From NCBI RefSeq assembly GCF_036588685.1, contig NC_086380.1, forward strand, positions 74,152,001-74,216,000: a DNA stretch of 64,000 nt, given 5' to 3'. Origin of the DNA: Mytilus trossulus (lineage: Eukaryota). The first letter of the stretch is position 1. The number at the start of each line of letters is the position of its first letter. Shown here one piece after another: positions 38,367 to 62,073 of this stretch. A model generated the notes under the pieces. That model saw only the letters and a list, made by a program, of their open reading frames with translations. It ran no database searches and was not told the DNA's origin. The position numbers and the translations under genes are program-made.

Positions 38367-41300
38367 ATGGATAATATGCAAACAGTCCCTTCGGATTTCA
38401 TTGATGGAGTTGACAGCGAAGAAAATGAAGACAATGAAGAAGTGTGGGGGAGAATGTTTCCACTTGGATCAAGTTTTATTGCAGTCGGTAAAAAACATGC
38501 ATAAAAAATCGTACATGTTTTTTGGGATTTGTTTCTAACTCTGCCTCTGGTTTGTGGTTCATCATAACAAATGAGTAACAATAATTGTATTTTCATCTCT
38601 CAAACTGATTCTAATTAAGCTGAAATGGTTGGTTGTTTAATAAATAGTAACTGCCAACATACTTTTGTAATGGTTGATTTTAAAAACAAATCCATAGAAT
38701 TTATCAGCAGTGGCGGCTCCAAAACATTTCATAAGGGGTCCGCTGACTGACCGAAGAAAGGGGGGGGGGGGGGGGGGGGGGGGCTGCTCCAGTCATGATT
38801 TAGTGATATCAAATACATGTATAATCAACCAATTTTTTTCCACGGAAAGGGAGGGGGCCTGCTTCAATAATTCCTTATATAATCAACCAATTTTTTCCAT
38901 GAAAGAGGGGGGCTGATTTGGGTACATCTGTCAAAAGAATGCATATATATGTCACTTGCACCAATATTTGTAAAATTTTTGATTTTGAACTTTAACTGGA
39001 CTTGCTGCCAGAAATAGTTGTTTCCTTGGCGTATTTTGATAACAAACATGATCAGTACATTTATGCCTTCAGGTTTATCCTGTTTGTCAAGGTTTTATTC
39101 CTCATAACTCTGTGTTTCAGACCTCAAAGGTAAGCCCACCCCTCCAAAAACCGCCATGTTAGATTGCTACTGACTACATGCACAAATACCTTTAAATTAT
39201 GTATCTATATTTGTACCAAATTAAACAAATCAAACATTTACTTGTTATACTGACCACTGGACTAGAAAAAAGTGTTTTGTTTAGCCTGTTTTAATTCATT
39301 ATATTGGTTTAGTAAGTAATAATCTCTTGGTCATGCTTGTCAGACTTGTTTGTTCCACATTTTCCAATTTTATTAGTTCAAATAGAAAGAAAATGTATAA
39401 CATGTATAAAGTTCTTTTTTCTTTAGATTTAACAAAAGAGGAATACTGCTTTGGACGTGGAGAAAACTGTGATATTCCTTTTAACACGGCAAATGCTAAG
39501 AAACACCAGTGTTTCCAGGCCTACAGTAAAGTACATTTCAAACTGATTCGGGTAAGATATACCTTCAGCCGAACATTTCAAACTGATTCGGGTAAGATAA
39601 AACCTTCAGCCGAACATTTCAAACTGATTCGGGTAAGATATACCTTCAGCCAAACATTTCAAACTGATTCCGGTAAGATATACCTTACCTTCAGCCGAAC
39701 ACTTCAAACTGATTTGGGTAAGATATACCTTCAGCCGAACATTTCAAACTGATTCGGGTAAGATAAAACCTTCAGCCGAACATTTCAAACTGATTCGGGT
39801 AAGATATACCTTCAGCCAAACATTTCAAACTGATTCCGGTAAGATATACCTTACCTTCAGCCGAACACTTCAAACTGATTTGGGTAAGATATACCTTCAG
39901 CCAAACATTTCAAACTGATTCGGGTAAGATATACCTTACCTTCAGCCGAACATTTCAAACTGATTCCGGTAAGATATACCTTCAGCCGAACATTTCAAAC
40001 TGATTCGGCTAAGATATACCTTACCTTCAGCCGAACATTTTAAAATGATTCGGGTAAGATATACCTTACCTTCAGCCGATCATTTCAAACTGATTCGGGT
40101 AAGATATACCTTAAGCCGAACATTTCAAACTGATTCGGGCAAGATATACCTTCAGCCGAACATTTCAAACTGATTCGGGTACGATATACCTTCAGCCAAA
40201 AATTTCAAACTGATTCGGGTGAGATATACCTTACCTTCAGCCGAACACTTCAAACTGATTTGGGTAAGATATACCTTCAGCCAAACATTTCAAACTGATT
40301 CGGGTAAGATATACCTTACCTTCAGCCGAACATTTCAAACTGATTCCGGTAAGATATACCTTCAGCCGAACATTTCAAACTGATTCGGGTAAGATATACC
40401 TTACCTTCAGCCGAACATTTTAAAATGATTCGGGTAAGATATACCTTACCTTCAGCCGATCATTTCAAACTGATTCGGGTAAGATATACCTTAAGCCGAA
40501 CATTTCAAACTGATTCGGGCAAGATATACCTTCAGCAGAACATTTCAAACTGATTCCGGTACGATATACCTTCAGCCAAACATTTCAAACTGATTCGGGT
40601 GAGATATACGTTCAGCCGAACATTTTAAAATGAGTTGTGTAGAAATCACTAATATTGCAAGTCTAATTAAAGTAAATATGAAAAAGAAAATGGGGTATGA
40701 TTGTCAATGAGACAATTCGTTACAAGATACCAAATGACGCTAAGATTGTAGACTGACAGGTCAATGTATGGCTTTCAACAATGACCAAAGTCTGTACTGC
40801 ATTTTAAAATTGATTCAGGTAAAAAGCACCATTATAATACTCCAGTATTTTCTGGACTATAGTACAGTACATTTTAAACTGTTCAGCCAGATGAATACAT
40901 GTGAAAATTCGTTAATGAGTTTCAGGATGTCTGTGATATATTCACCATGTTACTAGGGTGGAATGTGATGTTTTCCTAAAAATTTAAATAACAAAAATAC
41001 ATTTATACCTCACTCAGAGGAAAATTCTAATAGGAAAGTCCATTAGTAAATGGCAAAATCAAAAGCTCAAACACTTCCAACAAATTGATAACAACTGTCA
41101 TATTCCTGACTTAGTTCAGGCATTTTCTTATGTAGAAAATGGTGGATTGAACCTGCTTTATTACTAGATAAACCTTTCACTTATATGCCAGTCTCATACA
41201 TGTATAATGCCATTAATACTGGCATTATACATATTATATTGATGATGTGTGGGCAAAACCAACAGACATAAAAATGTCAAAAACAGGGGTTCAGCAGTCA

Positions 41301-47300: not shown

Positions 47301-47966
47301 ATAAAAGTTCACTTTGTGGCTCATATTTAGGATATCGAAATGTGGAAAACCTGATAATCTGTACATCTTGTAACAGCCTTCAATATTATCATGATTACAA
47401 TTAGTATACCAACACTTTAAGGTGGTACCTAACACTACAGGGAGATCACTCTAAATATCAGCTGAACGTTTTAATTATGTTGTATTGTTAAGGAAATATT
47501 AAGCTTCTCAATGATCAACATAAGGGTTAGTCAAAATGCTATATAACCAGTGTAATTTTTCTGATAAAGTGGTTGGTTCAATTTTTTTGAAATTTTTATA
47601 TTTTTGTCAAATGGTCAAAGTTAATGTTTTGTCAAAATTTTATGAAAATTAAACGAGCCAAATTAATTTTGACAAGGTGTTGGTACCACCTTAAATAAAT
47701 CATTTGGCTTATTGGCAATTTAACTCAAATAAATTATTTCATAGCAAAATGTGGATTCTTGCTGAAAAAAAAGGAATTCTATGGACATGTAATTTTTCTG
47801 TATTAATCAGTCCAAATTTTAATATTTTAAAATCCCATGAAATAAGAAACTTTTGGTACAGCTATGTGAGAATTATGAAACAATGTTAATAGGAATATAT
47901 ATTATATTGTAGAATCTAAGTAATCAAGTTATGACAGAGGTAAAAATACTGAAAGCATTACGACAT
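38367..47966 (+). CDS. CHEK2: Checkpoint kinase 2-like Ser/Thr kinase, 5' part; exons 38367-38487, 39427-39551, 42585-42663, 43545-43610, 44290-44380, 46490-46598, 47913-47966; remaining exons not seen in the window
   Basis: All junctions are GT-AG and phase-compatible. FHA motifs WGR..FGRG..CD..SKVHF..EDSSSNGTFVNGEKVG..NDEIAL are followed by kinase subdomains I-III (LGRGACGEVKLAF..FAVKIISKKKF..EVKILKALRH). Confidence 0.92.
39533..40630. repeat. 40/45-bp minisatellite (about 26 units) derived from the CHK2 exon 2 / intron 2 junction
   Basis: Unit acatttcaaactgattcgg|gtaagatatac(cttac)cttcagccga, with a 380-bp higher-order period. Confidence 0.97.
41540..42324 (+). mobile_element. Helentron-associated (HINE-like) non-autonomous element
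   Basis: ttttTAGCTCACC 5' end, subterminal inverted ggtgagc, 3' hairpin gctctttagagc, inserted in a T run. Confidence 0.75.
43124..43190 (-). mobile_element. tRNA-derived (Asp-like) SINE head or pseudo-tRNA
   Basis: Reverse complement: tggctctgtgagttaa (A box), ctgactgtcacccag (anticodon arm), ggtacaaatcccgg (B box); no acceptor stem. Confidence 0.5.
44957..46109. mobile_element. Non-autonomous Tc1/mariner-pogo (Tigger-like) element, TA TSD
   Basis: ta|cagtgaaacctg ... caggtttcactg|ta with subterminal ttcggttt repeats. Confidence 0.88.
46835..47222. mobile_element. MITE (Zator/Harbinger-like, TTA TSD) in a CHK2 intron
   Basis: tta|ggccaaaaaaaaatatatgtttgtttcctg ... caggaaacagacatatattttttttggtc|tta. 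Confidence 0.85.
47421..47690. mobile_element. MITE with TTAA TSD (Kolobok-like)
   Basis: ttaa|ggtggtacctaacac ... gtgttggtaccacc|ttaa; a related degenerate copy lies at about 18520-18952. Confidence 0.85.
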
Positions 47967-48104
47967 GTAAGTACTAACAATAATAAAAACATTTAAAACT
48001 GGTCAGCAATCAACAATCAATGTATGCTAGAAAATAAAAAATTGTAGAATTTTATATAGAAGATGTTGGGCAAACATCAATGCTACATGGATCCAAAGAC
48101 ACAA

Positions 48105-48654
48105 TCTATCTATACTATTAAACGAGAAGACCTCATTTTGTGTGTCGCTTCTCTTCCTTCCACAATAAATCAATCATCATGCCTTTGTGTCCTATAGGTA
48201 CCATGTATTGTCGCATTTGTCATCCATTCTTATGATTATTCAGTTTGTGTTATTTTGGAAGAAAAACGAAAAAAACTGCGTCCGGATATTTTTCCGTCAT
48301 TGGACGAAATTTTAAGTCAGGCTGGACATCTGGTTTGCTATCTACTATCATTTTCAAGTTTACTATCCACGGTGGTCACTGAGTTTATTAAATAGAGAGG
48401 GTCTATATAATATGTCAATGACCGCCGTGGATCGATTAGTAAATTGAGAGTTGATAGTAAAAAGCAAAACACTTTATTTATACTAATATATGTTTATAAC
48501 ATACCTAATAATACAGATAAACGCTAACAGAAAAACAATCGTCATGTCCCAAAGTACCTATAACTTTCGATACCTTTTCTGAAATTTTTCAGTCATAAAA
48601 TCTTTTACAAAAATTCATCGGGTCAATAAGTATATTAAATAGAGAGGGTCTATA
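48105..48654 (+). mobile_element. 5' part of a Helitron-like non-autonomous element, interrupted by the large transposon
   Basis: a|TCtatctatactattaaacgag 5' end; internal repeat attaaatagagagggtctatata broken at 48654. Confidence 0.55.
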
Positions 48655-48665
48655 TAGTCCAGGCA

Positions 48666-48858
48666 ATTACTGAAAACAGTAATATTACTATTTTATATAA
48701 TATTACAAGTAAAAGTAATATTACAAAAAATAGTAATATATTTCTTATATTACTAAAAACTGTAATTTTGTTATATTACTGAAATGTGTAATATAGTCTC
48801 TATATTACTTAAAACAGTAATATTACTAGAAAATGCCTATATTACATAGAACTGTAAC
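48666..48858. repeat. Subterminal array of ATTAC-N8-GTAAT dyads
   Basis: ATTAC at 48666, 48684, 48702, 48720, 48749, 48775, 48804, 48822, 48841; most are followed after exactly 8 bp by GTAAT or a one-mismatch variant. Confidence 0.9.
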
Positions 48859-48986
48859 ATAAGGCTTAAAGTCACTAATGCTGCCTTTAACTCGAGGCTG
48901 GAGACAGCATGACGTAGTTTTAGTATCATATTACATGGTAAATAAAAGATGGATCAAAATCAGTTTCATCACTTCTGCAAAATCAG

Positions 48987-49039
48987 ATGGAGACGCCAGA
49001 GCAACCAAATATGGAGTTGGAAAACACTTCCAGTACTGA
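48987..49039 (+). CDS. Putative first coding exon of the transposase (METPEQPNMELENTSST-D)
   Basis: ATG about 330 bp inside the left end; consensus donor GA|gtaagt; phase 2 matches acceptor 58775 (GA+T = Asp, then EAVLARH). Confidence 0.5.
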
Positions 49040-51972
49040 GTAAGTTGAAACATTTTATTATATTGTGAAGGATATAGAATTTTTAAGTAAATAAAAGTAT
49101 TTTATTCTGATAGTGTAATGACTTGTGATAATTTTAGACATGGTGCAATAGCACCGTGATGTTTATCTTGTTAGCGGTAAGCAGTTTAAAGAGGGCACAT
49201 AATGTATATCCACGTGTTTAACATGGGGAACAACTCATGTATGTCTTGTAATATTTCGCGGTAAAATGGTTTTTACTGCACAAGTAGTTGGTACATATTG
49301 AAAAACGTTGTTTGATTGTTATGAAAATAAAATAATTAAAAAGAAATTGTTTTTCTCGGAAGGCGGCTGAGAATTTCAGAACATCAAAGGAATCACCGTT
49401 TTAACTTGTACTAATTTGCGGTAAAAATGATTGTTACTGCAATTGAAGTTTGTACACAATGACGAACATATATAATTGTCATGAAAATGAAAGACTAAAA
49501 TGTAATTGTTTTTAAAAAGATAATTGTTTTCACGCGAAAGCTGAAAATGCAGAAACATCAAAGTGATCACGACCGTATTTAAATTATACCAATTTTGTGT
49601 ATAAACTACACATGTATTGAAAATATTTATTATAATGTAAATAAAAGATTACAACATGAATAGTGTTCATCGAGATCGGAGAAATTAAGAAACATCAAAG
49701 GAGTTTCCGTATTTTAACATAAGCTTGTCAAATCAACGAGTTTTATGAGGTGATTATTGTTTATTATAAACTACCAGTATTTCACGTTTGTAAAAATAGG
49801 AAAATCGGAAAGATTGATTACGCAATCATAGTAATGATGTTATAAAAATTCAAAAACAGAATTGTTAAAGGGCTTCATGGGTGAAAAACATTTTTCTTTT
49901 TTTTAATCTGTATCCGATTTTCGGAGTTTGGATAAGCATAGCTGTATGGGTTTATACATCCATGGAGGGGGATAGGACCTTTATCGTTACTCCGGGATGG
50001 GTTGTTTTTAAGCTCGGTATTCCGGGAGATGGGAATTTTTTTTTTCGAATTTCGGGATTCGGGAGATTTTTTTTTTGAAATTCGGGACCTCAGGATTTCG
50101 TGTGTTTAAGTCCGGGATTTCTGGATCAGGACCCCTCCTACCTCCCCTCATCTATGGGGTTATTAGCCGACCTTTTTCTTTTCTTTGCCCACTGGTTGAT
50201 ATTATTTTTAACCGAAGAAAATTTTAAAACAAATTGTAGAGGGAGCGAAAATCATGTTTTTAATTGACAATATCTAAACGGAAGTTTGAAGTTTCCGGAA
50301 TCGGAAAATCATAGCAACTTATATGTTTTGGACAAAGATGTTTTGGAATTATTGAAACGTATATACATGCATCACTAAAATATACGTCCTTGCTGGGATG
50401 AAGAGAAAATCAAACACATAGTGGTTGAATATTTAAAAGTTTTTTTTTTCATTTTAACTTTATTCACGTAAGAGGACGTCCATGTGGTATTCTTGGGAGG
50501 AGGATTTTGAAAATTCACATGTCATTGCAGTGACTAAAACAAATAACGAGTCTTTGGAAGATAATTAAAATGAAAGTGCGTGTGGTAAAGCTGCGGAAAT
50601 AAACAATTCAATATTAAATAAATATAGGACTTCGATAATTATTGAAAATAGTCCCCTATATCCAAATTTATGTAACATGTGTATAATTTAAAATAATTTA
50701 TAGAATCAAATTCAAAATTTAGAAAACACAAGTCACGAATTTTATTGAAATTAAAAACCTCGTGTGCTCCAAAATTTATATAACATTATTAACAATGGCT
50801 TGCCCCGCGTACGCGATCACCTTCGATACCCTTAAAAAAACTGATACAACTGATAAATTATTTTTACGAAGTCAAGAAGAATTATTACAGAAAAAGTTAT
50901 GTTCAAGTTTGTTATAATAATCAGAATATGTTGATGCAAGGTCAATTGATATCGATTTTTTTTCATTGGTTAAGACTGAGAGCTGAATTCGATATTAATT
51001 TTTTCATTGGTCTAGACAGACATCTATTTATAAAAACAACCAATGAAAACACGCTGATCACGCTAACTAAAAATAGCCTATATTGTTTATTTACAACTCG
51101 AGATTTACAATTTTTGAACATTTATATTAACGAACTGGAACTTTTATACTATTATAATAGTTACGATATATTAATTTAACCTTCCACGTTTTTAAGGGGA
51201 ACACCTTAGGAACCGGTAATTCGTCTATTTTCTTTTTTATTTTCACATTAATTTTTTACTAGACCTACTTGAAGCTGGGTTTAATCAGAGACATATAATA
51301 TTATATGTCTCCGTCAGTTAAGTAGTAAAACAATAATATTGTTTACTGCATTTACAATTTTAACAAATCCAGGAACTCTTACATGATTCGGCCCCCATGA
51401 TTCTACATTCTAACTTTTACCTTTTCATGTACCGACGGCTAATCAATCACGTATATCTTAATTAGCTGTCAATCACAACAAGGAATCAATAATTCGATAC
51501 GGGAAAACGAAATCTCAACAGATCGATCATTTTCTTGAATGAATGTAACAAGATTGATACTAGTAAAATAAGCTCGAATATTTCTGCGCTGCACAGATCT
51601 AATTGTTCTTGTAGTGTATTTTTTTCTTCCAATCATTTTTTTGTACATGAAATGATGCCTTCGTTTCTATTGAAGTGATTGATGATGGATATAAAAGGGG
51701 CACAATAAATGAATGACATAGTTATACTGCTAAAGAATCTGATTGTCTAGAGAGGAAATTAATCACAGTTTGATTTTAATTTACTTCTTAACTGACCGTT
51801 GATTAAACCAAGCTTCAAGCTGCGTGATTACATAATAACTTATCGATGGACGTGTAAATACTGACATGTTTATTGGAATAGTAAATATATTTTGATTGGT
51901 TTTTGATACAAGTCAATATCACAGATTAAGATCGATTATTAGGTCACTGGTGAACTCTTCTGATCATAAACA

Positions 51973-53293
51973 CACTCTAAGACATAAGCCCGGATTTACA
52001 TATATATTTCTACAAATTTATATCAGCATGTTATCAGTGATCAGTTAGATATAAATTATGTGGACACACTTTCTTAGTGGTTCACTAATTATAACCAGAT
52101 GTTGACCACAAAATGTTAAGCTGTAAATTCATATTTCTCTATGTCTTTCCTCCAGGCTCCATTGTATTTCTGAACAATAACTATGATTTTTTTTTTAATT
52201 TATCTGAAGAAATTTTCTTTTACAGATGGTTTTCCAATTTGAATGGTTTTTACACTAGTAAATTTGGGGCCCTTTATAGCTTGTTTCACATGTCAATGTG
52301 ACTGAGTGTTTTGGAAATAAAGCATATTGTATTGTATTGTATTGTATTGTATTGTTCGGTGTGAGCCAAGGCTCCATGTTGAAGGCCGTACATTGACCTA
52401 TAATGGTTTACTTTTTTAAATTGTTATTTGGATGGAGAGTTGTCTCATTGGCACTTGTACCACATCTTCCTATATCTATATTTAGTTTTTTGTGATATTA
52501 TGGACAACTTCCCCTGCAATTATATGAAATCAAATTGTGTTCCTTGTATTTCTTAAACTAATAAAAAAAAATGTACCATTAAAAACGAATAACATTAACG
52601 GTACATTTATTTTTTTATAAACTTTTTATTACTGTTTCTATTTACTTAATAACTTTAATAAAATATTACAATTTATTGAATTATTTCAAAGTGATGTGAA
52701 TTCAGGGAAAACAAAAAAAAAACATAAAAGATTAGCCTAACCATTACAAATGGTGTGGTTTATGCCATAGATATTGGCTAAAAAGACAATTTGTTTAACC
52801 CTCCCCCTTTTATTTAAATCTGGTATTTTTCTTAGTTTTCTATCAATTTCAATAAACTACAAGAAACTACAACATCAGAATTATGTCATCCTTTTTTTTT
52901 TAAGTGTGTGATATTTGCTACTACCCAAAACAATTAACATATTATATACTATGAATTACAATAAAAACTGAATCCATTTTAAATATGAACATAAACTATG
53001 ATATAATTACTGTAATAGTTTTCTTTTTTTTATTTAAACTTCTGATTTTCATCTTACACATGATCAAACTTTATTGCTATATTTCTATATCAATATTCAC
53101 TAGAATTCATTTATACACATTTATAACTGTACTTCAAAATAAATGCTGAAAATAATATATTAAGTAATGTGATATGTATGTGACCAGTTATTTAGGGGAT
53201 TAAGATAAACAAACCCAGCATGGTACTGGTCTGGGGGTAATTGGCATCAGCATTATAAGAGTAGCTGGAAATTCCGGCTTATGTCTTAGAGTG
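51973..53293. mobile_element. Non-autonomous CAC-terminus element (CMC/EnSpm-like) nested in the large transposon
   Basis: Perfect 18-bp TIR cactctaagacataagcc / ggcttatgtcttagagtg; no clear TSD. Confidence 0.8.
52326..52354. repeat. (ATTGT)n microsatellite
   Basis: Direct observation. Confidence 0.95.
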
Positions 53294-54499
53294 AATATAA
53301 AATCTGTGTTTTAAACCAGAGACATATGTGCATACATGTGTCTCTATTTTATAAACGAATATGAATAAATGTTAAGTGCAAAGAATGTTAGTATCATTAT
53401 ATATATGTATATACAATTTAGATATGGGATATGTCTTTATAATACAATTCTCCCTTTGCCATTTTTTTGTGATTTTCATTTCGAAATTTTATCAACCAAA
53501 CGTGTTAACAATATTTGTATTAAACTGAACATTGTTGTTTTTCTGAACCCCTTATTTTCAAAGATTTTCGTTGCATACAGTAAGTTATAAGGTTTATTTT
53601 CTCTGTTTAAATTACTATGTACATGTATGAGGCTATGATTGGGTCACCTTTCATAAGGATATTTATGGGATTTTCAAAAAAGAGAATAATGGGACCAAAT
53701 ACTGTAATTACCATACTAAAGAAATGAAGAAATATAAAGAATAGATTGATTTATTAATTGTTGGTTGCTTAACGTCCAGTGGCAAATACTTCATGCATGT
53801 AGGACAAATATGAAAGACACAAATTGACAAACGAAAAAAAGAAATAGAGTGATATGGTAAAAAAATAAAAGATATATAACTATAGGAATGATAACCTGAC
53901 ACACTATTAATTACCGCCCAGAATCGCATATGTATATATCTATTATATATAAACGAGTATACATGTCTAATTAAATGTTTATTTTTGTCTCACTGTGCCA
54001 GCTTCCCACCCTAAACCTAAATCTCCTCATTTGTTTCTCAGGTCGGAGACGTATATATATGTTCTGTTTGGACAGTCAAGTTTTTTATTAAACTGTGTTA
54101 TAAAATCTTTTCTGATTTAGTTTTAATTGTTACATGGTTTTGATCTCATAATCTTGAGGTCTGGCATGAAGTGTTTTCCTTGGCAATTCTTTAGATATCA
54201 CATCGAATGACAAATTTCATAAATAGGTTGTGTCCATTAGCAATCCTGTTTCACTTAAATGAAAAAAAAAAAATTGAAATTCTAAGATTTAAACCTTCTG
54301 AAGGAAACACCAGAATTATTTATTTACAGAAAGAGTTACTTTCGATATTTTTATAATAAATTTTAATAAATAACCAGAACTCAAACCTGTGTAATAGATG
54401 TACTGCTTGTTGTTAAGACCATTAAATCTTTATTATGTTATATAAATACAAAGATAACTTGTATGAGTGTTATTGAGTACATTGTTGTCTATAACAAAT

Positions 54500-54790
54500 G
54501 TATATTACAGATATGTGTAATATAAAGTCCCCTTCTCTCAGTAATATTACAGATATGTGTAATATAAAGTCCCCTTCTCTCAGTAATATTACAGATATAG
54601 GTAATATAAAGTCCCCTTCTCTCAGTAATATTACAGATATGTGTAATATAAAGACTGTCCCCTTCTCTCAATAATATTACAGATATGTGTAATATAAAGT
54701 CCCCTTCTCTCAGTAATATTACAGATATGTGTAATATAATTAAGTCCCCGCATCTCAATAGTATTACAGAAATCTGTAATATTAAATCAT
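54500..54790. repeat. 42-bp minisatellite (about 6.5 copies) carrying the same ATTAC-N8-GTAAT dyad
   Basis: Unit ccccttctctcagtaatattacagatatgtgtaatataaagt. Confidence 0.95.
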
Positions 54791-57700
54791 TGTAGATCAG
54801 TCATATTAATACAGCAATGGGTAATACAGTAGCAGTTCCAAAAAAATGTTACAAGGGGACAAGTCCAGTCATGCTTCAACTATTTCTTATATATATTCAA
54901 CCAAATTTTTGACCAAAAATGAGGGGTCTGAGGCTCCCTGAATCTGCATATGATGCTTATGAAAACAAAACTTGAGTTTATATTTACACTTTGTATAAAA
55001 GAAATTGTTGATTACAGACATTTCAAATAGACAGCAAAGAGTATTTTCATTTGTATCAAAAGGACGTACACATTGAAACAATATACTATAATGGCAAGAT
55101 GAAGGGTTATAACCCTTTTTACTAGGTTTGACTATTTGGGATATTCACTGACTCAATTGTTTTATTATACCAACAAGCAAATTACAATAAAAAGTAATAT
55201 ATTGTATCATATAAAAAAAGAAGATGTAGCATGATTGCCAATGAGACAACTATCCACAACAGACCAAAATGACACTATAGGTCGCCATACGTACAGCCTT
55301 CAACAATGAGCAAAGCCCATACTGCATAGACAGCTATAAAAAGCTCCGATAAGACAATGTAAAACAATTCAAACGAGAAAACTAACGGCCTTATTTATGT
55401 AAAAAAAATGAACAAAAAAACAATATGCAACACATAAACAAATGACAATCACTGAATTACAGGCTCCAGGAGTGACTTGGGACAGGTTGTCAAAACAATT
55501 ACGTTAGAAAACTGTTTTGTGTCTATGAACATTTGGCATATATATACACAACAAAGCAACTATTTCTGTAATAAATGAATGGCCCTGAAAAGGTCCATTT
55601 TAAAGAGATATCATCACACTAAATGAGTTTTCGAGTCTTGTTTGATCTTTTACTTTGGCATTTGATGTACTTTTAACCTAGCCGTTTTCATATTAGCCAA
55701 TCAAATAATCATTTTATAATGAAAGGTATTATAATACTAAATAAATCTTAGAATCATAAGCAATGAGTTGCCTAATGCACATACTCACTGTCCGGTTGTA
55801 CTAGTTATAATTACATTAAAAAAAATATTCTTATATATATATATATATATATAAAAAAAAACATGAGCAAATCCAGCTTGTCAGGTATATATATATATAT
55901 AATATATATATAAGTACGTCTGAGTCAGTGACAACCCTACAACAGATGTATCCATCGGATCACCATCAATGATGGTGATACATGGCTCACAGTGTACATA
56001 ATGTATATACAACTCGTCTAAACATGACACTATAATAAATTATTTGTATTCTGATATATGGACTTTCAATTTAAACAGAAATAAAGAAAAAAAACACTAT
56101 CTGGCCTGCATTGAAAATATTTCTGAATAGTTTAATATTTATTGAAATCTTTAATAACAGTAACTGAAAATCATCTAAAGTCGAGGGACAAGGACACTTA
56201 TATCATATAATCTTTGTATTCAGTGGTTAGGATGGGCCACTGAAATAGTTCTCTATATCTGCTTTATTAGAAATGTTATGTTGAGAAATTTATACTTTAC
56301 AGTACATATATACAGATGGAAGAATGCCATCACATTTGAGGGAATCCCAATTTTCACAACTCATTAGCTTCACAGTTTGAAGTCATTGTATATACTACTC
56401 TTCCCAATAAACTGACCACAGATGTTACACATAGATTATCTGATAAGAAAGTCAAATTCTGGCATTTTCTGTCTTTACTTGAAACATAAATACATCTTCT
56501 ACCTGCATGACTTGTAACAATATCTATATATTGTATATACAGAGTCTGATGGTTTGATGGTTTCCAGATAATAACTTTAGTATAGAAAATAGAAATCAAT
56601 AAAATTTTAATGCAAGGTTTATAACCTCTTTAAGCAAGGAGGTTATAATATAACCTCCTTGCTCTTAAGGAAAGTTGGGATTAATTTTGGGGTTTTTGGT
56701 CCTAACAGTTTAGGAACAATGGGCCCAAAAGGGGTCAAAATAAGCATTTTTCTAGTTTCGAGACAATAACTTGTGCCTAAGTGTATGGATCTTTCTGAAA
56801 TTGTACCACAAGGTTCTATTCATAAAAGAAAGGTTGGGATTGATTTTGGGGTTATGACCAAAACTGTTTGGGAATTAGGGACCAAACAGAGGCCGCAAGA
56901 CCAATACTTTTCCAATACTTTGTATAAATTGCTTATTTCTTGACCAATTTCAATGAGGTTTTATTCTTGAATTCTTGGGGTTCTTAAATATGCTGAATCT
57001 AACCATGTATTAAGTTTTTGGAATTTGGTTCCTTTTTTTAAATTTGTCCACATGAGGTCAAAAGGGTCCAAAATTAAACTTTGATAATTTCATCAAAAAT
57101 TGAAATATTGAAGTTCATTGATATGCCAGACCCAACCGTGTATTTAGATTTTTGATTTTGGGTCCCATTTTCAAATTGGTCAACATAATGGTCCAAAGGG
57201 TCGGTCCAAAATAAATTTACTTTGATTTTAACAAAATTTCAATTCTTGGGATTCATTGGTATGCTGAATCTAATCATGTATTTGGATTTTTGATTATGGG
57301 CCTAGTTTTCCAGTTGGTCCGAGTTGGATTCCAAAATATAGACCAGATCTGGATTTTAACAGTCTTAAAATACACACACTTTGGCTGATCAATGCATTTG
57401 AATGGGTACATATAGTTGGACGCCCTCCCCTTTGTCCTGGGTTGGGAACCCCCTTTTTAAAATGGCTGGATGCCCCTGAATTACATTGACATGTTTTATT
57501 AAAACATAAAATTTAAATTATAAATTATCATAGCATTTCTAAATTATATGCAGAAATCAGCTTATTTTTATCAATATTCAAAGAAGAAAAGAAATTTATA
57601 TTTTCTAATTAAGTTATGGATTAAAACATTGCAAAAATGTTATGAAAATAGAAACCGCCTTGTCTATAAAAGAGATTATAGATTACATAATGTATTTAGT

Positions 57701-58775
57701 GGATGTGAGAACCACTATACCTACTGATTTATTACTTGTATAAACAATCAATTATGGATAGCAGGAAAAATCCTGGCTGTAAATTTAGATTAAATATGTC
57801 TAAAGGTCAGGGTTTTTTTTAATTTGCATCATTTTATCATCAGAGGATGTCAGGATGTGGTTAAAACCAAAGTTGTAAATTAATCCTCACATTAGATATT
57901 TGACTGAGCTATCAACAGTTGATGCCATGAATCTCATAGTTTGACAATAAATGCACTGATTAACTTTAACAACTTTTTGAAAAAGGAATTTCCAATGTGT
58001 CAGCAACTTTTAAGTGGGAATGACAAATTAATTTCTATCTTTTTGACTGCAAAAAAGAAGAACACATTTGTACATGATGCATTTCTATGTCAAGTCAAAA
58101 TTGTCCACACTTGTTTCAGAAACAGTTAAGGAGGTTCACTACTGACAATTTCAAAATAACAAGCTTTTCATAACATAAATATACATTTATTGGAGATTAA
58201 TAACTAATGGAACCAAAAGAACCTAAAAAAAATATATTTAGGTCAATGTGTTTGTTTTCCAGATATGAGCTAGGGAAATTTTGGTGGGAAAATGTTTTCT
58301 CTTGATTTTTTTATAGCTCTATCATAGACAAAGTAAAGTTCTCAAAAACTAATACAATACAATACAATACAGTATTTTTATTTTCCAAATTAAAGGGCAT
58401 ATTACAGAGTGATTAAAGAAACATAAAATAATAGAAAATAACAACTTTTCTAGATGGCTTTATGATTACACATGTTAAAGATTTTTAAAGAGAAAAATGG
58501 GGGTCGATGGGCAAAATTTTGTACGGCAGTCATATGAATAAAACCAGAGGATTTTGAAAATCTGACAAGAATTCCAGAACATTCTTAAGATCGGAATCCA
58601 ATTTCCTAACCAAAATGCCTGAACTTAGAACCAATATAACATAAAATATTAATTCTAAGCACACTGTGAGTGTATTGAATGTTTTAAGAAAACAATTATC
58701 ACAAGTACAGGACAGAGAAAGATAATATTATACTTCATTCTTTCTTTTCAAACAAAACAACATTTATGTTTCCAG

Positions 58776-61700
58776 TGAAGCAGTGCTTGCCAGACACCTG
58801 AAGATTCTTGAAACATCCTGCAGAATATGTGGTAGTAAAAAATTGCACAAATCATCAAGAAAAAAAGACGAGTTTGTTACTGAGTTTAAAGAAATGTTTA
58901 ATATTGATATCATCTTAGATGTACCAGAAATTCACCCAAATGCCTTGTGCAGAACTCACGAACAGTTATTATTGAAATACAGAGAACAAAAAAAACACCA
59001 AAATATGCACACTTTTAAGACCAGCATCCAAGTAGTAGATTTCAACCCACATACTGACTGTTGTAAAATATGCAATGTTACCCGAGGAAGAAAAAGGAAA
59101 AGGACAGGAGTAAACAACCCTCGTATTATACCTGTAGTATCCTTGAATCAGCCTCAATGCGAAATAGAAACCACAGATTTAGATGAACAATATAATGCTT
59201 CACCAAGTGATGTCAATGACTATTCTGATTATCTAGTTGAAGAAACATCCGAACCTTCACCTGCTGAAAGGAATTTTGAATTTGAAACCAATTTGTATGA
59301 AAAAAAGGAGCAAGAGAGTAATGTCAAAGATAAATGTATTGTTGATGATTTATTGACCAATATTGAAAATTTAACAGAAACAAGTAGAAAGTACTTCCTT
59401 AGTGAGCTCATTTGTAAACTGTCAAATGAGGAAGTATCTGAACTTGCATTTATTATTGGGAGACAGCAGCAGCAAATTTTTACAGATGATATAGAAAACA
59501 TTTCACAGCAATATACAAGCCATTCATTCTTGACAGAGTTAAAAGCTGAAAAATGGCTGTCAGAACGAAACAGTGCTTTGATTCAGTTCATTTCTGGAAT
59601 CACAAAATTTTCAATATCAGATGCAGCTGAAAATATGAAAATAGCTGTTTGTCGAATAGTTGAGCAAATTTATGCACTACGTTACCAGAAACTTGTTGCA
59701 CCAATATCATTTCTTCTCTCACTTAATATATATTCTAAAACAAGTAGCAGAGCTGTTGTTGACTTAGTCAGTAAAACAAGCCCAAGCGGAACTTACAATA
59801 CACTGCAGAAGTGGATTTCAAAATCTGGAACATCTGCTCCACCATGTCCACCAGGTACAGTTATGGCTGCCTTTGATAATGAGCAAGTTGTTGCATATAA
59901 ACGGGGTATAGCTCCTAATCAAAAGTCTAAGTGCTCAATTATTACCACTGTGCTGTATGCATCTATGTCATCAAAGAATACTATTCCCATGTTCATTCAA
60001 GAAATAGATATATTAAAGCCTAATAACTGGTTCACTCTGAATTTTTTTGAAGAACGTCTTAAAAGCATCAGGGCAAAACAGCATGAAGATGGAAATCAAT
60101 TGGAGGAACATATTATGAGGGACAAAGAGACATTTGTACAAGGTATCACTGAAATAAGGGAACAGACATGCGATGAATATGAACAGCTAGAAAAGCTGCA
60201 TTTTGAACAACTGCACCATTTCATTCAGAATGCCATTGATGCTGTTAGATATGAGCATAAAATGAATGAGGAAGAGGATTCTTACCTTGATGAAATTGAC
60301 AAAAGAACACATGAAGCAGAGAGAAGGAAAGATATTTTAGTTTGTACGTTATGCAATGCAGAGAATGGCAAGAACAAGATAGTATGTGATAATTGTAAGA
60401 GGAGAGAAGGACTTAAAGAAGCAAGAATCAAGAAGAAAGATACCGACACATCTGGAACCAACAAAAAATCAATGTCAAAAACTGAAGAAATAAAGATCAG
60501 CAAAACAGATGATAACCAAGATTCTAAATATATACGATACCAACATGTTCCATCCAATCATAAGGGGCCAACATCTACAACTTTAGGCATGCCAGCATTT
60601 GTCAACCCTAACAGCAATGAAACTGTGTCTTTAGTTCTAAGGCATATTGGAATCAATATGGGAATTAAGAGATATGGGGGTAAAGAACGTAGTTGGGCCT
60701 TTGTCTGTTGTGATGGTAGACCACACAGTCTTTACCAAAAAATTCTAGAAGAATCTGTCATGTGTAACCATTGTAACCAGACTTTTTCAACAAGGAACAC
60801 CTATAAAGAGCACCACAGATTAAAACATCAACCTTTACGTCCTTTTTGTTCTAGGGAATTCGACTGTCTATACATGCGTATTGGAGGTGGTCACTTTGAA
60901 ATGAATGCTATGAAAGCATTCTTTGAACTAAACTGGACACCCTTTTTAGAAAAATTATGTGAGCTTATGGGGTTTAAAACAGAAAATGCAAAACATTTTG
61001 CAAAAACTTGCAAAGATCATCATGTAGCTTGGCAACTTCTTCTCACTTTCCACACTTCCTCTCTGAAGGAGATGGTGATACCATTCATCAGAAGCTTGAA
61101 AGAAACTAACTTAGAAGCCACTGTTGAAAATTATTTCCGCTTTTATAAAGAATTTTTGGCACACAACTCTAACCATGCATTCCTCCATTTGCAAATATGC
61201 AGATTTTCCCAAGCTATTATTAATTTCAGAATGGGTATGAGACGTAACAATGCTGAACTTGTAAAAAGCGCAAAATATCATCTGAAAGAATTATTCTATG
61301 GACGCTTTCATCCCCACTATCAAAACATTGAACTTTTTGACTGTATTCAGTACAAATTCATGCCTGATGAAGTAAAGAAAGTTTGGGATGATACCATTTC
61401 TTTCACAGTGAGTGGAGATCCATCAAAAGGGCAGGACCTTGATTTTGTTTTGGAGGAAAAGAACAAAACAATAAAACAATATCTACCCAGTGGAACTGTG
61501 CCATCAGACGAAACCTGGAAATCAATTTGCTGTAACATCACTTTCTTTGAGTCTTTGCAAGATAAATTAACAGACCTCCTCGGTTTATCAAAACAGTCAG
61601 AATATGGAACAAAAATAATTGATATTAACAATGCCATCACCTCCTACCGCCCAGTTTTAAGGCAACATCTATCTACAATGAATGACGAACACACTTCTGT

Positions 61701-62073
61701 TTGTGGAAAGAAACTCCATTCAGAACTAAACACCTTTCTGGAACAGTCAACACAGAGAAGGCAAGAAAAGATAAATTCTTGTATTCTTGGTATCCCAACA
61801 GATAAACCAACAGGTGGACCGGTCTTCATCACACCAGACGAGGAAAAAAAATATGAGAAAAAAATGACAAAGGCTGAATTAAGAGACTCAATTAAAACAA
61901 TGATCGGAAAGCTTTTTCGTAATGTTGAACTTCAGACTCATTATTCTGCAGTTTTAGACAGCCTGAATGATACTACACAGACAAATAAGGATACCTATCT
62001 CAATCTTTACTTTGAATTACAGGATGTAACTGACAATATTCAAACTGAACTTGATAGCTTTGAAAATGAATGA
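58776..62073 (+). CDS. Transposase-like protein with RAG1-N-terminal-like zinc domain, RanBP2-type zinc ribbon, C2H2 finger and DDE-like core; main exon (possible exon 1 at 48987-49039)
   Basis: Uninterrupted 1096-codon ORF. Motifs: H-x7-CRIC...F-x-ID...IHP...C...PH-x3-C-x2-C; FDN (D365), CCDG (D644), GGGHFEMN (H704), D887-x3-E891-x2-N. Acceptor ttccag ends at 58775. Confidence 0.85.

Follow-up and report, generated by a model that had tools for sequence, protein, structure and literature searches.

A fixed-spacer dyad array just inside the left end of a multi-copy Mytilus transposon: a candidate binding array for an element-encoded dimer

The transposases of hAT and P elements bind subterminal repeats, and the DUF6589 domain is linked to Academ elements. 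Subterminal arrays that are read by an accessory protein are established in plant CACTA elements: in En/Spm, TnpA binds the subterminal repeats and is required together with TnpD, and alternative splicing in CACTA elements yields the transposase and a second protein, with the transposase ORF located in the first intron of the latter (PMC2613891). TnpA is reported to be transposase-derived (10.64898/2026.08.24.746577). Academ elements have terminal inverted repeats and a target duplication of 3-4 or 9-10 bp (PMC10045372), and the mean length of bivalve Academ elements is 5.6 kb (PMC10294476). According to PMC12730594, Chapaev/CMCT termini are 5'-CA..TG-3' in most cases; PMC4411706 and 10.64898/2026.01.24.700457 name Chapaev as the only other carrier of the NZD domain.

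We analyzed a 64-kb stretch of Mytilus trossulus DNA (the window), in which an earlier note, made from the letters alone, had drawn attention to short inverted arms arrayed around an 8-bp spacer. The array is probably a protein-binding end signal of some kind. In our view it is likely to be a subterminal binding array, and its likeliest reader is a dimer of a second protein of the element family, ORF2, whose N-terminal domain has a MADS-box/NRF1-like predicted fold; the probability that we assign to this reading is about one half. Coordinates of the features are collected in Table 1.

Table 1. Features of the window (position 1 is the first letter of the 64-kb stretch)
Feature	Coordinates	Strand	Remark
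Last host kinase exon before the insertion	47913..47966	+	CHEK2-like by translated motifs
Very high-copy host repeat receiving the insertion	48106..48654	+	Helitron-like; internal repeats of ~230-250 bp
Left terminus of the transposon, TAGTCCAG	48655..48662	+	sole TAGTC[CT]AG match on the + strand of the window
Terminal segment, possible terminal inverted repeat or end common to related copies (presumed)	48655..48866	+	run X6 depth
Array of eight ATTAC-N8-GTAAT dyads and a lone left arm (48822)	48666..48858	.	
Transposase gene, coding exon 1 (donor at 49040, phase 2)	48987..49039	+	matches the N-terminus of P0018 and that of the transposase portion of P0015/P0016
42-bp minisatellite, a further array of this dyad with near-identical spacers	54502..54830	.	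inside the 9.7-kb first intron
Single further exact dyad	55181..55198	.	
Main transposase exon: RAG1-NZD/Chapa-like zinc finger, DUF6589-like core, candidate DDE triad	58776..62073	+	

The dyad array

The dyads start at 48666, 48684, 48702, 48720, 48749, 48775, 48804 and 48841; six of the eight are exact, and two carry a single mismatch in the right arm. The spacings of left arms across the array are 18, 18, 18, 29, 26, 29, 18 and 19, so the exact 18-bp period claimed for the first four dyads is correct, and all eight spacers given in the earlier note were found where it placed them. Its count of nine half-sites is right for the left arms, but only eight of these belong to dyads, the arm at 48822 having no right arm. 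The exact motif ATTAC-N8-GTAAT occurs 14 times in the window, compared to 0.13 expected (0 of 100 shuffles). When spacers from 0 to 30 were scanned, 14 matches were found at a spacer of 8 and 0-1 at the others, except for a spacer of 26, where the two matches are two neighboring dyads read together. Pairwise likeness within the array is 95% for the arms and 46% for the spacers, and shuffled spacers reach 41% (p = 0.066). The combination of conserved arms, fixed 8-bp spacer and varying spacer sequence, as originally described, is thus confirmed by the likeness values and by the enrichment of a spacer of 8 among 0-30. The spacers are 86% A/T, with one strand A-rich (37 A, 18 T); the linkers between dyads are 0-11 bases long, and the array strand folds strongly (z -5.8). 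There were no Rfam matches within 47800-56000. The array looks like a set of repeated candidate sites for a two-fold symmetric binder, and its units probably result from old duplication, after which the arms were kept by selection while the spacers drifted.

The remaining 8 of the 14 exact dyads lie outside the terminal array and had escaped the earlier note; seven are in the minisatellite (54502-54782) and one is at 55181. Five of the first six minisatellite units have identical spacers, and the minisatellite matches the sixth terminal unit at 22 of 24 letters; it may have been amplified from part of the end of a related element. This array illustrates what recent slippage produces, and the terminal array differs from such a pattern.

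Differences between copies were also considered. Among those listed (40 of 393), the ones that fall in the array are at 48690, 48741, 48759, 48767 and 48809, all five outside the arms; the probability of such arm avoidance by chance is ~0.055, i.e., not significant. No indel in the array was found among those listed (12 of 100), and among the pieces listed (32 of 15,298) all four contigs that cover the array are gap-free, one of them with 21 differences in 291 bases. The case for constraint on spacer length and for conservation of the arms across copies is modest.

Pattern scans with the dyad returned at least 124 metagenome loci and 44 viral loci. These were rejected as relatives: of the 160 loci compared, not one is similar to the window or to the transposase, and they are independent arrays. 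L029:10001-10102, L040, L044, L047, L056, L023, L024 and ~20 more carry 3-5 dyads each, which repeat exactly every 28 bp and differ in their spacers; by gene content they belong to Flavobacterium-like bacteria, and they have no similarity to the window. In the seven loci with ORFs listed, the dyads immediately precede a gene of ~204 aa; in both cases scanned, this gene is of the SatD family with a C-terminal HTH. Such an array is probably an autoregulatory operator array. L028, L049, L072, L092, L004 and L054 are animal-like elements made of 20-22-bp palindromic units with the same arms, in which the 8-bp centre is often palindromic; the design recurs in a sequence unrelated to the window. L010, L022, L025 and L043 are chloroplast-like contigs, and the same dyad is found within their dispersed 28-bp repeats.

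The transposon and its transposase

Contigs from 4 of the 24 runs were placed on 47850-52050, with depth used as a rough guide only to copy number. The contigs of the host repeat have loose ends at 48107/48108 in all four runs, start at 48106-48108 and have a summed depth of 1e3-3e5; we take this repeat to be Helitron-like by its TC-starting 5' end. It contains a 36-bp repeat at 48374/48621, and some of its contigs join from 48647-48656 back to ~48415, representing other host-repeat copies without the array. The kinase exon that ends at 47966 is presumably CHEK2-like, judging from its motifs, and no later kinase exon was found in the window by motif search. The lower-copy unit is represented by contigs that start at 48652 and 48656, show flat depth and extend beyond 52050. 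It is covered in all four runs, with the host-exon bin at depths of 43.6, 0, 0.14 and 0. Because TAGTCCAG at 48655 coincides with the start of this multi-copy unit, we place the beginning of the array 11 bp inside the transposon end. A position at an element end had been assumed in the earlier note, and it is now supported by this terminus and by the contig starts at 48652-48656. The transposon with the array is multi-copy and is inserted into a Helitron-like repeat.

The chance of finding TAGTCCAG within 50 bases of the array is ~4e-4 (for one motif). This octamer has 19 occurrences in the bivalve library curated in PMC10294476 (supplement file 31), counted over the first ~400 letters per sequence; of these, 17 are at or within five letters of the starts of Academ consensus sequences (n = 100) and 2 are near hATw starts. 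The motifs of the array or of the exon are absent from these sequence starts, over the same ~400 letters. In run X6, a contig spanning 48691-48866 has a depth of 147, compared to 32.5 for the contig continuing from 48837, and a smaller excess is seen in the other three runs; this would fit a terminal repeat common to more copies. Self-comparison of the window revealed no inverted partner of the left end, the right end being outside the window, and if the end of the mobile unit lies past the window, its length is at least 15 kb. Neither the three CTRGACTA matches on the minus strand nor the other TAGTCC-like sites are ends of this transposon, as far as the window shows.

Several other repeats were recorded. 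Two 110-bp direct repeats, 160 bp apart and 76% alike, occupy 49245-49513 in the first intron of the transposon and are found in other copies too. Common mussel repeats are nested in its long intron at 49960-50170, 52356-52480, 55209-55442 and 58126-58582. An open frame of 91 codons at 56357-56629 on the minus strand of the intron has no Pfam match and might be an exon of a nested gene. Elsewhere in the window, 39533-40633 is a tandem array in which ~26 units, 40/45 bp long, show a higher-order period of 380 bp; every unit carries a spaced inverted repeat (CCGAA, spacer 13).

The 53-base exon 1 starts 129 bp after the array, and its phase 2 fits the acceptor at 58775/6. Joined over 9.7 kb, the two exons encode 1116 aa with no stop, and the product is identical to the RefSeq protein P0018 (M. 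trossulus, "isoform X1") at 1106 of 1108 residues. The joined protein also has 97% identity to M. coruscus models that fuse these two exons with another host gene, COMMD4, and the ORF at 58.8-62.1 kb has 97% identity to an M. edulis protein. Because an exon near the array is spliced to the main exon, and the same junction is present in public gene models, one of them at another locus, the array and the distant transposase are parts of one mobile unit. One of the two differences from P0018 swaps a nearly invariant tryptophan, so the window copy may be impaired. The intron stretch at ~49139-49177 has splice-like ends and would close the frame after a few codons.

With the transposase family profile, E is 1.8e-8 for RAG1 residues 142-273 and 1.1e-7 for the NZD structure 21WB, and there is no match to the RAG1 core; PF12560 is above the cut-off in relatives, not in the window protein alone. 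The core of the protein is DUF6589-like, below the cut-off in Pfam scans and with a score of 0.92 in another comparison. Conserved Cys/His clusters are formed by C664/C667/H680/H685 and C746/H750, and we infer that the DDE triad lies in the FDNE, CDG and LEE motifs. The best large structural match of the predicted model (pLDDT 73) is the P element transposase, with Z 7.9 and rmsd 6.1 over 335 residues; a Z of 7.9 is middling and fits an RNase H-type DDE enzyme. A Foldseek search with the model of the entire transposase returned no match at E<=0.001. No tyrosine recombinase domain was found in the 58 short frames or the long ORF, and no helicase or nuclease gene among the 58 short frames scanned, the window holding an incomplete transposon. 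The transposase profile matched none of 102 viral candidates, and the exact end motif had no viral matches.

ORF2 and the possible readers of the array

The second protein is known from relatives of the window element. Protein P0035 has its N-terminus in common with transposase P0002, and P0091 with P0022, i.e., exon 1 is shared in the gene models of two families. In the fused gene models P0034, P0038 and P0047, ORF2 is downstream of the transposase, and P0071 (ORF2) and P0019 (98.7% identical to the window protein) have neighboring accessions and equally long contigs. Locus L161 encodes a transposase that is 33% identical, followed after 4 kb by an ORF2 exon (E 2.5e-33), both being on one strand; neither L161 nor L162 contains a dyad array or a recognizable end. 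Only 1927 bases of the window follow the transposase stop, and ORF2 is absent from the window; we infer its presence in the window copy. It should be noted that L161 and L162 are contigs in Sedimenticola bins with animal-like repeats, introns and this transposase family, and they probably represent contamination by host DNA; P0007 is likewise labeled as bacterial. In the gene models P0069 and P0082, the ORF2 domain is joined either with a THAP domain (Pinctada) or with C2H2 fingers; these proteins are possibly domesticated or mis-joined.

The N-terminal domain of ORF2 has 29 relatives at E<=0.001. A MADS-like fold was suspected from their alignment before any folding. The protein folded was P0041, from a family with a transposase 44% identical and not from the window family, with 19 relatives used. 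The model has a helix, two strands and a helix (pLDDT 77), and in a Foldseek search its ranks 1-7 are SRF, MCM1 and NRF1, with E 0.67-1.7. Upon re-alignment, the top 16 entries are all NRF1 or MADS proteins, which align over 60-72 residues with Z 3.6-5.3; of 48,161 chains, NRF1 alone reaches Z>=5. These scores are weak, all Z being below the 7-8 typical of chance and individually within chance. The best values are Z 5.3 and rmsd 3.4 over 64 aligned residues for NRF1, and Z 4.3 and rmsd 4.3 over 66 for MCM1. As for sequence, there is no Pfam SRF-TF match and no match to a solved MADS domain. The case for a MADS/NRF1-like fold is made by coherence and by the prediction that preceded folding. A homodimer prediction for the ORF2 domain scored 0.00; the alignment was not used in it, and it is counted neither way. 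No longer ORF2 proteins were found among 8000 candidates, and the Atlas gave no ORF2 match at 0.9.

MADS dimers bind and bend a ten-base core that is bounded by C and G and has an A/T-rich centre, and in the palindromic Mcm1 operator an eight-base centre is flanked by these same four-base arms; a printed sequence of this operator was not found in the literature search. The mussel dyad is built in this way, although none of its eight cores agrees exactly with the CArG or MEF2 consensus. Because MADS-box and NRF1 proteins bind spaced dyads as dimers, ORF2 appears to be the likeliest reader of the array. Each ORF2 dimer would contact both arms of a dyad, with the A/T-rich 8-bp centre setting spacing and bend, not sequence. 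Several dimers would coat the end and help the transposase to pair both ends, and the transposase would cut at the TAG terminus. ORF2 would probably also regulate the transposon's own promoter just downstream, as TnpA does for En/Spm. The right end would then consist of the inverted array followed by the terminus CTGGACTA.

Alternatively, as happens in hAT and P elements, the array could be bound by the transposase itself, through the helical region before the catalytic domain, the internal C2H2 finger or the N-terminal zinc finger; we regard this as somewhat unlikely. The transposase is the sole element protein seen in the window, its conserved Cys/His clusters and P element transposase-like fold would suit such a role, and transposases can be sequence-specific regulators (10.64898/2026.08.24.746577). 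This explanation, however, leaves no role for a conserved and linked ORF2 with a dimer-type predicted DNA-binding fold, and the N-terminal finger matches the RAG1 NZD, the function of which is given as unresolved in 10.64898/2026.01.24.700457. The earlier note had proposed a dimeric, element-encoded binder: the repeated two-fold symmetric sites, which are the element's own, are consistent with it, whereas the transposase N-terminus that it had in mind is not the best candidate. A host transcription factor (MADS-type or other) could be the reader as well, if the array were a promoter module driving the element transcript. The location 129 bp ahead of the first coding ATG and the C-N8-G cores with A/T-rich centres are compatible with such a module. 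When compared to the CArG and MEF2-type consensus, none of the eight cores is exact (1-5 mismatches), which speaks against it, and the copy excess of the terminal 210 bp alone in X6 is left unexplained; we find a host promoter quite doubtful.

No protein reader would be needed if the array were a decayed palindromic minisatellite in the terminal repeat that arose via slippage or hairpin-primed copying. The amplification of the same dyad at 54.5 kb, the strong strand folding together with the A-rich strand bias common to the spacers, and the palindromic tandem arrays of the same dyad in many unrelated contigs all speak for this origin. Drift, however, is expected to affect arms and spacers equally; with the likeness values given above (95% and 46%) and linkers of 0-11 bases, the terminal array is unlike the 54.5-kb array, where five of the first six spacers are identical; and it starts only 11 bp from a conserved terminus. 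We consider this origin improbable. Even less credible, to the point that we give it little weight, is that the dyads are lox- or RSS-like recombination sites, cut in or beside the spacer. Inverted arms around an 8-bp spacer do resemble the core sites of tyrosine recombinases, and the N-terminus of the transposase is RAG1-like. Yet the 58 short frames and the long ORF lack a tyrosine recombinase domain, the profile match is limited to RAG1 residues 142-273, none of the 15 joints listed (of 133) ends within the array, and spacers that differ between units would block lox-type exchange. The analogy with RSS and lox sites drawn in the earlier note is not upheld, for there is neither heptamer/nonamer asymmetry nor similarity to the RAG1 core.

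If the array is read by ORF2, the parts may belong together in an undescribed lineage of animal DDE transposons whose terminus is Academ-type, whose transposase has a RAG1-type finger and whose end palindromes are read by an alternatively spliced protein of predicted MADS/NRF1 fold; we put forward this composite picture tentatively. If true, it would represent a transposon-borne MADS-like protein with its own cognate sites, which bears on the origin of the MADS and NRF1 domains and of the RAG1 N-terminus. A MADS/NRF1-like domain beside its target sites would offer a protein-DNA pair that can be tested directly, and might link those folds to a transposon. The ORF is open, and several Mytilus species have copies at different loci, so it may be possible to recover a working system.

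Comparison with known systems

The literature search found no description of the mussel transposon lineage, of the dyad, or of a transposon-encoded MADS-like protein, although the family may already be catalogued. Subterminal binding arrays are already known as a kind, and the mussel array is a variant of it in a lineage for which no printed description was found.

With respect to RAG1 and its relatives, the mussel transposase shares the N-terminal Chapa/NZD zinc finger with Chapaev and RAG1L, whereas its left end is TAG and not CA as in Chapaev/CMCT. It differs from RAG1/Transib in the absence of core similarity and in having a symmetric dyad array instead of heptamer/nonamer ends. A RAG1-type finger without a RAG1-like core or CA termini widens the range of this domain beyond Chapaev. 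N-RAG-TP of Aplysia also belongs in this comparison and may be the same element as the mussel transposon. In contrast to lox sites, the dyads have unequal spacers, and the part of the transposon within the window has no cognate tyrosine recombinase.

The MADS-box proteins (SRF, Mcm1, MEF2) and NRF1 resemble the system in the helix, two strands and helix of the ORF2 model and in the spaced dyad with an A/T-rich centre; the differences are the 7-16% identity in structural matches, the lack of a Pfam match and the low Z. Academ elements are similar in their 5'-TAG terminus, since TAGTCCAG is found in 17 of the 100 bivalve Academ consensus sequences, and in the two-gene organization. Unlike them, the mussel transposon is at least 15 kb long, compared to the mean of 5.6 kb; its transposase has a RAG1-type N-terminal finger; the second gene of its relatives encodes neither a helicase (AcademH) nor a nuclease (AcademX); and the first ~400 bases of each bivalve consensus sequence show no such array. 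Membership in Academ is unproven.

The closest parallel in organization is with CACTA/En-Spm elements, in the array of short repeats just inside the end and in a 5' exon shared by the transposase and the accessory protein, the latter seen in the gene models of two related families. The parts themselves differ: the mussel terminus is TAG, not CACTA; none of the CACTA domains of Pfam is seen in the transposase; the repeats are perfect spaced dyads; and the second protein of the mussel families has a MADS/NRF1-like predicted fold, whereas TnpA is, in the source cited above, transposase-derived. An animal element that follows the same logic with unrelated parts would be a clear case of convergence.
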